Below, one piece after another: positions 17,155-18,817 of a stretch of DNA of 24,000 nucleotides. The number at the start of each line of letters is the position of its first letter. Positions within the stretch are counted from its first letter, which is position 1. The translations under genes and the position numbers were made by a program. The notes under the pieces are model-generated. The model ran no database searches, was not told where the DNA came from, and was given only the letters and a program-made list of their open reading frames with translations. Origin of the DNA: an uncultured Desulfospira sp. (GTDB lineage: Bacteria; Desulfobacterota; Desulfobacteria; Desulfobacterales; Desulfobacteraceae); assembly GCA_963664655.2 (NCBI GenBank), contig OY761554.1, positions 157,901 through 181,900 on the forward strand. The letters are read 5' to 3'.

Positions 17155-17928
17155 CTAATTAGGCTGATATCCCATCAGCCCTGAGATGGTTCGTGCCGCA
17201 TCCAGAATTTTTTCAGAGAACTCATTGAACGCTGACCGCTCGGGGCGCCGGGCGGTTGTCCAGGCCACGTTTACCGCCGCAAACGCTTCGCCTCTATGGT
17301 TGAATATGGGGGCGGCAACGGCCCGAAGGCCTTTTTCCAGCTCTTCATCGTTGATGGCGAACCCCCGGTTACGAATGGTTTCAAGTTCCTGCTTCAACAT
17401 CTTTTCCGATACAATGGTCTGGTCTGTTTTGGGGATAAAATCAATTTTCCTCAGAATCTCGTCCAGGCTCTCCGGCGGAAGAAATGCCAGAATGGCCTTG
17501 CCCATGCTCGCGCAGTACACGGGAAGCCGGTCCCCGACATTGACGTTGATGTTCACCAGGTAGTCGGACATGATCCGTTCCACATAAAGGATCTGAGTCC
17601 CGCTCAAAATGGTGAGGTTGATGGTTTCGCCGGTGTCTTTGCACAATTTTTTGAGGATGGGCAACGCCGCCTGGTGAAGGTTCATGTTTTTTAAAGCGGC
17701 AAGGCCCAGAGAAACCAGGCGGGAACCGAATTGATAGGTTTTCTTTCCCGGGGCGGTTTCGATCAGCCCGAGGTTGACCATGGTTTTCACCAGCCGGAAA
17801 CAGGTGGTTTTTTTAAACCCGGTCTGTTTGACGATTTCTTCAAGATTCATCTGGGTCTGGCTGCGGCTCAGGCAGTCGAGAACCAGAAAACATTTTTCAA
17901 TGGACTGAATGTGATCTTTGTCTGGCAT
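17155..17928 (-). CDS. IclR-family transcriptional regulator
   Basis: 257-aa ORF with an N-terminal wHTH (SIEKCFLVLDCLS...MNLEEIVKQTGFKKTTCFRLVKTMVNLGLI) and a C-terminal IclR effector domain (GFAINDEELEKGLRAVAAPIFNHRGEAFAAVNV). It is the first gene of the - strand operon. Confidence 0.9.
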   Translation of the reverse strand: MPDKDHIQSIEKCFLVLDCLSRSQTQMNLEEIVKQTGFKKTTCFRLVKTMVNLGLIETAPGKKTYQFGSRLVSLGLAALKNMNLHQAALPILKKLCKDTGETINLTILSGTQILYVERIMSDYLVNINVNVGDRLPVYCASMGKAILAFLPPESLDEILRKIDFIPKTDQTIVSEKMLKQELETIRNRGFAINDEELEKGLRAVAAPIFNHRGEAFAAVNVAWTTARRPERSAFNEFSEKILDAARTISGLMGYQPN

Positions 17929-17948
17929 AGGCGCTTCTTTGTAAATTT

Positions 17949-17965
17949 ATTCCGCTATGCGGAAT
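17949..17965. promoter_or_regulatory. Perfect palindrome ATTCCGC-TAT-GCGGAAT, a candidate IclR operator, with two further half-site-like copies at 17981-17987 and 17989-17995
   Basis: A 7+3+7 palindrome lies 21 nt upstream of the IclR start codon. GCCGAAT and GCGGAAC repeats follow. Assigning it to IclR is inference. Confidence 0.4.
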
Positions 17966-18035
17966 TATTTTTTTTAAAATGCCGAATTGCGGAACACGCT
18001 ATCCGGGGAATCCCGGGTTGTCAAGGAATTTTTTT

Positions 18036-18135
18036 GTGGACATGGGTGGACAGGGTGGACCAAGTGGACTTTGTGGACAGCTAAAGAGCTGTGCCGTACC
18101 GGGTCCACACGGTCCACCAGGTCCACTGTGTCCAC
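18036..18135. repeat. Array of five GTGGAC hexamers followed by four GTCCAC hexamers with 9-bp periodicity around a central acagct/agctgt dyad
   Basis: GTGGAC starts at 18036, 18046, 18055, 18064 and 18073. GTCCAC starts at 18103, 18112, 18121 and 18130. The central palindrome is at 18077-18092. Spacers are not complementary, so only the hexamers are conserved. Confidence 0.85.
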
Positions 18136-18258
18136 CATTCGATATGCAAATGGGCAAAGCTGACTAAAAACGCAATTTGCATAAAAATGAATTACATAGT
18201 ATGATCTAAACCGTCACCACAAGCCCAAGCAGAAAAGAACAAAGCAGGGGGGATACCC

Positions 18259-18651
18259 ATGACAACCAAACCCGTTTTTCTAGCGGCTGTCTGCCTGTGC
18301 TTAATATGGGCCGGGCAGGTGTCGGCCATGCAAAGCACCAACTATAAGATCACCGCTTCGGTCATGTCCTCAGGCGGGGGAACCATGACGTCGGCAAGCT
18401 TTGTTTCCAATGCGGTTCTCGGGCAGCCAAGCCCCATCGCGGATCAGGATGAAACCCCTGTGTCGGCCAGCTACGACCTGTATCCGGGATATTTGTACAC
18501 CCTGGTCTCAGGCTCTTTCTGTGGCTGGGATCTGAACCCATCTGACGGGGATGTGGACGGGCTGGATTTATATCTATTTATAGACGGCTTTGACGTAACC
18601 GAGTATATAGAAGATTTTTCAGGCGAGTTCGGCAGAACCGGCTGCCAGTAA
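18259..18651 (+). CDS. Small secreted protein with a C-terminal Cys-bracketed acidic (dockerin/EF-hand-like) module
   Basis: 130-aa ORF with RBS agggggg and signal peptide MTTKPVFLAAVCLCLIWAGQVSA. It carries STNYKI...GGG...SASF...GQP...SASYDL repeats. The C-terminus is CGWDLNPSDGDVDGLDLYLFIDGF...EFGRTGC. Confidence 0.7.
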   Translation: MTTKPVFLAAVCLCLIWAGQVSAMQSTNYKITASVMSSGGGTMTSASFVSNAVLGQPSPIADQDETPVSASYDLYPGYLYTLVSGSFCGWDLNPSDGDVDGLDLYLFIDGFDVTEYIEDFSGEFGRTGCQ

Positions 18652-18663
18652 ACCATAACATGG

Positions 18664-18817
18664 TGTACCTATTCAGCCAATGCTGAAAACTAAGCAAAAA
18701 TCAAGCTCCGTAACTGTTCATCAGTGCTTCATATTTGTTTAGTCAGGACTTCGTAGCATACTTTTGCTATGTGAGAAGGCCTGAATGAGCGAAGATGGGG
18801 CACTGCTGAACAGTTAC
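18664..18817 (-). repeat. MITE-like structured repeat, right copy (inverted relative to 888-1041)
   Basis: The reverse complement aligns with 888-1041. Its internal TIRs (gtaactgttcagcagtgc / gcactgatgaacagttac) and the ttcagc-N4-gctgaa hairpin are retained. Confidence 0.8.

Follow-up and report, generated by a model that had tools for sequence, protein, structure and literature searches.

The window analysed here is a stretch of 24,000 nucleotides from the genome of an uncultured Desulfospira sp. (G000, with the two contigs C1 and C2; window G000:C1:157901-181900), and it holds, between a gene for an IclR-type regulator and a gene for a 130-aa protein, an array of nine GTGGAC/GTCCAC hexamers. 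We give an even chance to the reading that this array represents a solo (gene-less) copy of a repeat which is putatively recognised by a four-helix-bundle protein, in the manner of repetitive extragenic palindromes (REP) and the REP-associated tyrosine transposases (RAYT), and that it is a passenger at its present locus. The repeat would consist of GTGGAC plus three free bases, usually with about four units facing about four inverted ones, and would be private to proteins combining the TIGR02436 and TIGR04258 domains, such as P0001 of this genome.

In the window, five GTGGAC units face four GTCCAC units (Table 1). All nine hexamer positions and the central dyad described in an earlier note on this DNA were recovered by inspection of the sequence and by motif search. 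The phasing, which had been called strict, is indeed 9 bp, apart from a first step of 10 bp. The array is not a chance assembly, with 23 GTGGAC/GTCCAC hexamers in the window compared to 9.0 ± 3.1 in shuffles, nine of them within 100 bp, and its pattern is likewise more frequent than reversed controls. Folded as single-stranded DNA, the element is predicted to adopt a hairpin of -33.8 kcal/mol (z = -7.1 vs shuffles), built of 6-bp helices with internal loops between them. A search of positions 17500-18700 against Rfam 15 returned nothing at gathering score, only microRNA-hairpin models below threshold (23-31 bits vs 60-97). A coding function of the array was discarded: the 62-aa open reading frame (ORF) at 17979-18167 is the repeat translated in frame, as the earlier note had recognised, and a tblastn search of the spacer with P0001 matches the repeat-encoded part only. 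Hence, as far as this search reaches, no remnant of a four-helix-bundle gene is present at the window locus.

The array belongs to a dispersed repeat family that has no constant relation to promoters. Twelve convergent GTGGAC/GTCCAC arrays are present in the genome, eleven of them intergenic and the twelfth inside the P0001 gene on the other contig. Hereby, GTGGAC comes first and GTCCAC second in all 12 arrays, and the divergent order does not occur (n = 0). GTGGAC is by far the most frequent 9-bp-phased hexamer of G000, and the two-unit phased pattern is found 60 times genome-wide compared to 9 times for the reversed control. Seven or eight of the eleven solo arrays lie 10-200 bp past a stop codon, while three arrays sit between divergent genes. 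Spacers, centres and flanks are unrelated between loci, except for three copies inside a segmental repeat of ~390 bp, which, these three copies aside, rules out that a single miniature inverted-repeat transposable element (MITE) was copied around the genome. The earlier note had proposed a genome-wide search as a check of its view that the array is a multi-site operator or nucleation site, and had set against this view a dispersed repeat with no positional relation to promoters; the latter is largely what the genome contains.

The family is not confined to this genome. In a scan of prokaryotes with one genome per species, a convergent pattern in which three units of GTGGAC and three of GTCCAC are separated by 8-38 nt was detected at at least 120 loci in more than a dozen phyla, with about 1e-5 chance matches expected according to our own estimate. 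These phyla include Hydrogenedentota, Acidobacteriota, Nitrospirota, Chlorobiota (including cultured Chlorobaculum), Lentisphaerota (Oligosphaera ethanolica), Planctomycetota, Chlamydiota, Chloroflexota, Verrucomicrobiota, Bacteroidota, Clostridia and Desulfobacterota, among others. Viral contigs gave no match to the array pattern, and the reversed control of a convergent two-plus-two pattern was found 0 times in all 301 genomes of an even phylum sample. Over 90 arrays the layout is uniform: the units keep strictly to a 9-bp phase, the centre measures 8-44 nt and varies in sequence as in length, and four units per arm are the mode; the window array with its 5+4 units and 24-nt centre fits this layout.

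The spacers reveal what is conserved in these arrays. Spacers of opposite arms form Watson-Crick pairs at 34% over the 90 arrays compared to 28% in shuffles, and only 8% of the spacer pairs are fully complementary, so that the earlier statement that the spacers are not complementary holds for most of them. On the GTGGAC strand, C is depleted at the three spacer positions (6, 16 and 10% vs 30% background; loci L036-L115), and this depletion is the same in solo and gene-linked arrays. Since the hexamers are kept while the spacers are free and mostly non-complementary, the conserved thing is the word, not the stem and not a DnaA box, which is the signature of recognition by a factor. In this respect the earlier note, which had placed conservation at the level of the hexamer and taken this to suggest protein recognition, is supported by the spacer statistics.

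The same note had remarked on a likeness to DnaA boxes, and the core of this comparison is correct: the DnaA box (TTATCCACA or TTGTCCACA) has GTCCAC as its core, at positions 3-8 of the high-GC form, the 9-bp unit containing TCCAC is as long as a box, and the two opposed sets recall the generally known arrangement in oriC. Arrays of this kind could titrate or organise DnaA like datA, DARS or the halves of oriC, and a universal protein would account for one word in many phyla. Beyond the core, however, the units do not match either box. The box-completing spacer (AAT on the GTGGAC strand) is present in only 5 of 522 cases, and the units of G000 with 0, 1, 2 and 3 mismatches to TTGTCCACA at the three flanking positions number 4, 11, 35 and 29, as expected at random. 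Compared to DnaA-box clusters, the flanks thus lack a preference, the units follow each other without spacing, and origin context is lacking, dnaA and a few canonical boxes beside it being located on the other contig. Moreover, the array is tied to another gene and patchy: it is absent in the related genomes G001 and G005, and 0 of 35 relatives without the four-helix-bundle gene have an array although DnaA is, as generally known, near-universal. Finally, the word changes among branches of the four-helix-bundle protein. We therefore consider a DnaA-binding array very improbable.

To find the partner of the word, 80 of the at least 120 loci were fetched and all their ORFs were clustered without prior assumptions. 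One family stands out, comprising proteins of ~190-230 aa which are 60-74% identical across phyla and which carry the four helix bundle suffix domain (NCBIfam TIGR04258, 72.9 bits) on a TIGR02436 core. The array lies inside the ORF of this family or at most 92 bp away at 17 of the 80 loci, the remaining 63 being gene-less; many gene-less copies are found in G000 and in several multi-locus genomes of the prokaryote scan. In the phylum sample, TIGR04258 is present in 36 of the 301 genomes and convergent arrays in six, and all six are among the 36. In line with this, five of 40 relatives carry the gene, and arrays occur in three of these five carriers and in none of the 35 non-carriers, which include the sister species G001. 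In other phyla, the gene was found in four of five array-bearing genomes vs 0 of 14 controls. The repeat is thus physically and phylogenetically coupled to the TIGR04258 gene family.

Where the array lies inside a gene of this family, its GTGGAC arm is translated as Gly-x-x and its GTCCAC arm as Ser-Thr-x. In a confident AlphaFold model of P0001 (pLDDT 85.9) the protein is helical throughout except for residues 133-151, which are encoded by the repeat, are predicted to be disordered and constitute the sole low-confidence part of the model. The Pfam family PF05635 (23S rRNA intervening sequence protein) scores 29.7 bits on P0001, below its gathering threshold of 33.8. Across the family, the word follows the branch of the protein. 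GTCCAC or xTGGAC words accompany homologues that share at least 57% identity with P0001, and other 9- or 10-mers those that share at most 45%. This is also seen within G000, where a paralogue 42% identical to P0001 has no GTGGAC but 13 upstream units and three inverted downstream units of another 9-mer (CTTAAGGTC type), of which hardly any solo copies exist elsewhere in the genome. Taken together with two plain TIGR02436 genes (Table 1), all four members of the four-helix-bundle family in G000 have a private short repeat, and three of these repeats are dispersed.

A wider statement, to which we assign slightly less than an even chance, would be that proteins of the Avd / S23p four-helix-bundle superfamily read their own short phased repeats in a sequence-specific manner, with a word per branch and with gene-less arrays seeded across phyla. 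In this superfamily-wide view the TIGR04258 branch would have the GTGGAC nonamer array as its ligand, and the two together would constitute an undescribed protein-repeat system, again a proposal that falls just short of being evenly balanced. Our literature search found no publication on the GTGGAC repeat or on the TIGR04258 family.

If the solo-copy reading is correct, the repeat would be private to a small, basic, horizontally travelling protein, here P0001, whose gene carries the array within its own frame, in a disordered linker. This protein, probably oligomeric and with a subunit on each 9-nt unit, would dock on the hexamers, either in an extruded or single-stranded form of the DNA or in RNA, and this docking would maintain and perhaps spread the arrays, in a relationship similar to that of RAYT proteins with REP/REPIN sequences. 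The place of the window copy upstream of both neighbouring promoters favours an action on DNA; an action on RNA would fit with the many copies at 3' ends and with the one inside the gene. At the window locus the array would be a passenger, inserted 11 bp upstream of the -35 hexamer of the IclR gene, and its effect on the two promoters, if any, would be secondary, e.g. that of a bound or cruciform-forming barrier between them.

Several observations weigh against such a relationship between protein and repeat. In the five genomes of the phylum sample that have arrays besides G000, the arrays listed are no more than ~30 bp away from the stretch coding for the suffix domain, and the association in these genomes is thus largely physical linkage and not by itself a trans relationship. 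One array-bearing genome (G042) gave no TIGR04258 match, and 30 of the 36 genomes with TIGR04258 lack the exact GTGGAC pattern. Similarity of P0001 to solved structures of the S23p family is weak, both in fold (top Foldseek match, E = 0.67) and in sequence (E = 0.56). No recognisable DNA-binding motif was found in the four-helix-bundle family, and we know of no sequence-specific nucleic-acid recognition by its members. Furthermore, neither target-site duplications nor conserved termini were found at the solo arrays.

The arrays could also be a passive by-product, i.e. neutral or selfish hairpin minisatellites that arose by slippage or recombination from the array of the four-helix-bundle cassette and persist without a reader in trans and linked to the gene by shared ancestry. 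In support of this, runs of identical 9-mers at C2:676289 (seven CCT-spaced units) and C1:4860631 (five AAC-spaced units) resemble products of local slippage, copies decay at their edges, as seen for the right arm at C1:5064734, and many other repeat families populate G000. The gene-borne array and four of nine independent solo arrays, that of the window among them, have in common an A-run immediately behind the terminal GTCCAC, and since such a flank is rare elsewhere (5 of 166 ends in other phyla), it hints that the solo copies descend from the gene copy of G000 itself. Slippage, however, duplicates whole 9-mers, whereas most adjacent units match in the hexamer and not in the spacer. In addition, one hexamer has been retained across phyla though spacers, centres and flanks are unrelated, the word differs in more distant branches of the protein, and the order is exclusively convergent though the opposite order would pair equally well. 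On balance, a purely passive origin appears unlikely.

Alternatively, the arrays could act as RNA, with or without the four-helix-bundle protein, namely as a transcribed interrupted stem-loop which protects 3' ends, offers an RNase III site or forms a terminator-like barrier, comparable to the stabilisation of upstream mRNA by REP sequences. The strong predicted structure, the accumulation of solo arrays shortly behind stop codons and the necessarily transcribed array in the P0001 gene are in favour of this explanation. The window copy, on the other hand, is probably contained in neither neighbouring transcript, Rfam offers nothing above threshold, and pure structure leaves a fixed hexamer with mismatched spacers unexplained. 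Intrinsic termination in particular is ruled out by the runs beside the arrays, with T before and A after the hairpin, the reverse of what a terminator has. We thus hold an RNA-level element to be quite unlikely.

A further candidate partner is a fusion of a Y1 (IS200-like) transposase with the C-terminal DNA-binding domain of DnaA, several of which are encoded in G000. This enzyme would be RAYT-like and the arrays its REP-like substrates. The Y1_Tnp proteins concerned are 324-325 aa long and match DnaA positions 337-437 in their C-terminal part; it is plausible that a domain of the DnaA type could read the TCCAC core, and Y1 transposases are generally known to act on hairpins. None of these genes, however, is near a GTGGAC array. 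The family is present in 23 of the 40 relatives, nearly all of them array-free and including the sister species, and hence does not discriminate between genomes with and without arrays; it is also absent from the outcome of the neighbour clustering of 80 array loci. The chance that this fusion is the partner is accordingly slim.

For the locus itself, the window was compared with the orthologous spacers beside the IclR gene in the sister species G001 (76% identity of IclR) and in G005 (63%). The hexamer TTGACA (reverse strand of 18019-18024) is conserved in both, and the array, which starts 11 bp upstream of this probable -35 hexamer, is absent from both, similarity ending just past TTGACA. 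Two ATTCCG-N-GCGGAAT palindromes are probably autoregulatory operators of IclR, because they are conserved in both orthologous spacers; that at 17949-17965 was also detected as a terminator-like hairpin followed by a T-run. The right-hand gene is missing in G001 and G005, which places the array at a synteny break and renders the comparison of orthologous spacers an incomplete test. A candidate IclR promoter, TTGACA-17-TAGCGT, was read by eye from the sequence, and the only promoter-like match for the 130-aa gene (TTTGCA/TATGAT, 18176-18205) lies downstream of the array. The array is therefore located upstream of both divergent candidate promoters and probably in neither transcript. The inverted repeat that the earlier note had reported behind the array is present as well, with 9 nt per arm, and is a candidate operator of the 130-aa gene, unrelated to the hexamer array.

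The earlier note had taken the array for a cooperative multi-site operator or nucleation site in the IclR divergent region, possibly bound by a response regulator fed by the neighbouring kinases. The position between two divergent genes and the resemblance of phased hexamers to iteron-type operators speak for a local regulator of this kind. Against it, eleven further copies lie at unrelated loci, and the array is missing from the two spacers that retain the IclR operon and, in the palindromes, sites fitting an IclR operator; a site specific to this promoter and conserved with it is not what is observed. In addition, the kinases further left are accompanied by a single response regulator in the window, whose output domain is an HD domain and not a DNA-binding one. 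A local operator is thus extremely improbable, and the array should not be taken as part of IclR or kinase signalling. Of the flanking proteins, the 130-aa protein has a signal-peptide-like N-terminus and, in the 40 relatives, almost no homologues, with two weak partial matches. An exact look-up of both flanking proteins, made in search of other strains, gave no record.

Table 1. The hexamer array, its surroundings in the window and related genes elsewhere in G000. Positions without contig refer to the window.
Feature	Position	Strand	Remarks
Left arm, five GTGGAC units	18036..18078 (starts 18036, 18046, 18055, 18064, 18073)	+	unrelated spacers of 3-4 nt
Centre	18079..18102	.	24 nt between the arms; holds most of the dyad
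Dyad ACAGCT-AAAG-AGCTGT	18077-18092		tip of the predicted hairpin
Right arm, four GTCCAC units	18103..18135 (starts 18103, 18112, 18121, 18130)	+	left-arm word reverse-complemented, same 9-bp phase
Whole element with a few flanking bases	18026..18145	.	predicted single-strand fold: long interrupted hairpin
Junction GGAATTTTTTT	18025..18035	.	from the IclR -35 hexamer to the array; on the other strand an A7 run right after the terminal GTCCAC
Inverted repeat TATGCAAAT / ATTTGCATA	18143-18151, 18175-18183		perfect, 9 nt; second arm overlaps the -35 of the match at 18176-18205
ATTCCG-N-GCGGAAT palindromes	17949-17965, 17978-17994		just upstream of the IclR start; conserved in G001 and G005
Operon: IclR regulator, TAXI-type TRAP binding protein, fused DctM permease, family III CoA-transferase	left of the array	-	
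130-aa protein gene	18259-18651		right of the array; no Pfam match
VWA/CoxE-like protein, AAA ATPase	beyond the 130-aa gene	-	
P0001 gene	G000:C2:682976-683608		210 aa, pI (isoelectric point) 9.9; only gene in G000 with a GTGGAC array inside
Array in the P0001 gene	C2:683379-683439		array twelve; in the disordered linker
Paralogue, four-helix bundle + suffix	G000:C1:2609348-2609914	-	42% identical to P0001; between ORFs which we take, from their sequences, to be HsdS-like and HsdR-like
Plain TIGR02436 gene	G000:C1:2500502-2500807		dispersed 8-bp family GGGAAAGT / GGCAGGTG (~17 loci) on either side
Plain TIGR02436 gene	G000:C1:576111-576428		adjoins TCATCCT heptamers, a family of at least 10 loci
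Y1 (IS200-like) transposase + DnaA C-terminal domain genes	G000:C2:478978-479952, C1:1720459-1721433, C2:470996-471610		

We refer to the family, under a name defined in this analysis, as GTGGAC-N3 nonamer hairpin arrays linked to TIGR04258 genes. The window array shows the 9-bp hexamer period and the opposed arms, of about 3-5 units each, of this family, and a gene with TIGR04258 and TIGR02436 that carries the same word is present in its genome. Known systems resemble the family in part. As generally known, REP/REPIN repeats are likewise dispersed, intergenic, hairpin-forming and patchy in close relatives, and one particular gene carries the repeat or is flanked by it, with different words in different gene lineages. 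In contrast to RAYT proteins, the putative partner of the GTGGAC arrays, a small four-helix-bundle protein, is all-helical without recognisable catalytic domain and not a Y1 transposase; no Y1 gene of G000 is flanked by the arrays. Furthermore, a REP is an imperfect palindrome of 20-40 nt conserved over its whole length, whereas here only a 6-nt word is conserved, with free 3-nt spacers. The arrays number about a dozen copies and not hundreds, and one word is common to several phyla. With regard to how such an array might work, and as an analogy only, the ring or filament proteins TRAP (GAG/UAG triplets) and omega and ParG of the ribbon-helix-helix type (7-8 bp heptad or tetramer-box arrays in either orientation), all generally known, would be comparable in combining a fixed short word, free spacers, a strict period and few units with one word per oligomer subunit. 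Their folds differ from the four-helix bundle, and there is no homology.

Among short tandem repeats with units of 6-9 nt, cyanobacterial short tandemly repeated repetitive (STRR) heptamers, TAACTGA repeats (PMC4679880) and GGGNATC repeats (PMC4692102) share with the arrays short units, intergenic enrichment, variable copy number and a patchy distribution across phyla that suggests horizontal spread, with no established mechanism. The GGGNATC repeats are reported to prefer about four units (PMC4692102), as do the GTGGAC arrays. The repeats of these families are perfect whole-unit tandem copies, mostly in one orientation, and no partner gene was identified for them, whereas the arrays have one, fix six of nine positions while three vary, and consist of two opposed arms. 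Other repeat families of G000 do conform to the STRR type. A G-quadruplex, suggested by the four units per arm in comparison with PMC4692102, was considered and appears improbable: each unit contributes just a GG pair with 7-nt loops, and the complementary arm alongside folds at -34 kcal/mol.

Intervening sequences of 23S rRNA (S23p / PF05635), such as that of Coxiella (PMC4990558), involve the same superfamily (TIGR02436 / PF05635) and likewise combine a small four-helix-bundle gene with stem-forming inverted repeats in a selfish-looking insert. There, the stems flank the S23p ORF within a helix of the 23S rRNA. The window array lies outside an rRNA gene (Rfam found none at the array), between protein-coding genes and without an ORF of its own inside, and the hairpin of the partner gene is located within the ORF, not around it.

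If the link between protein and word holds, the reading of a private repeat would be a first testable function for a very large protein family of unknown role, to which the ORFs of rRNA intervening sequences belong and whose relatives include the Avd accessory proteins of diversity-generating retroelements. Intergenic arrays which are ignored by annotation and are easily taken for operators, origins or DnaA sinks would likewise be accounted for. G000 lends itself as a test case: it contains one gene copy, eleven solo arrays and, in the paralogue with another 9-mer, a built-in specificity control, and it offers two more members of the protein family, which adjoin its 8-mer and 7-mer repeats.

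G000 additionally harbours abundant heptamer hairpin families to which no partner gene is assigned, for example at C1:66682, C1:816287, C1:192754 and C1:1046632. GACTTGG/GGATATG heptamers occur at ~50 loci, many of them with one common loop core and MITE-like in appearance, and further families consist of GCTAAC[a/g] and of GGAGACC/CGGAAAC units. Finally, an element of ~95 bp is present in more than 120 copies.

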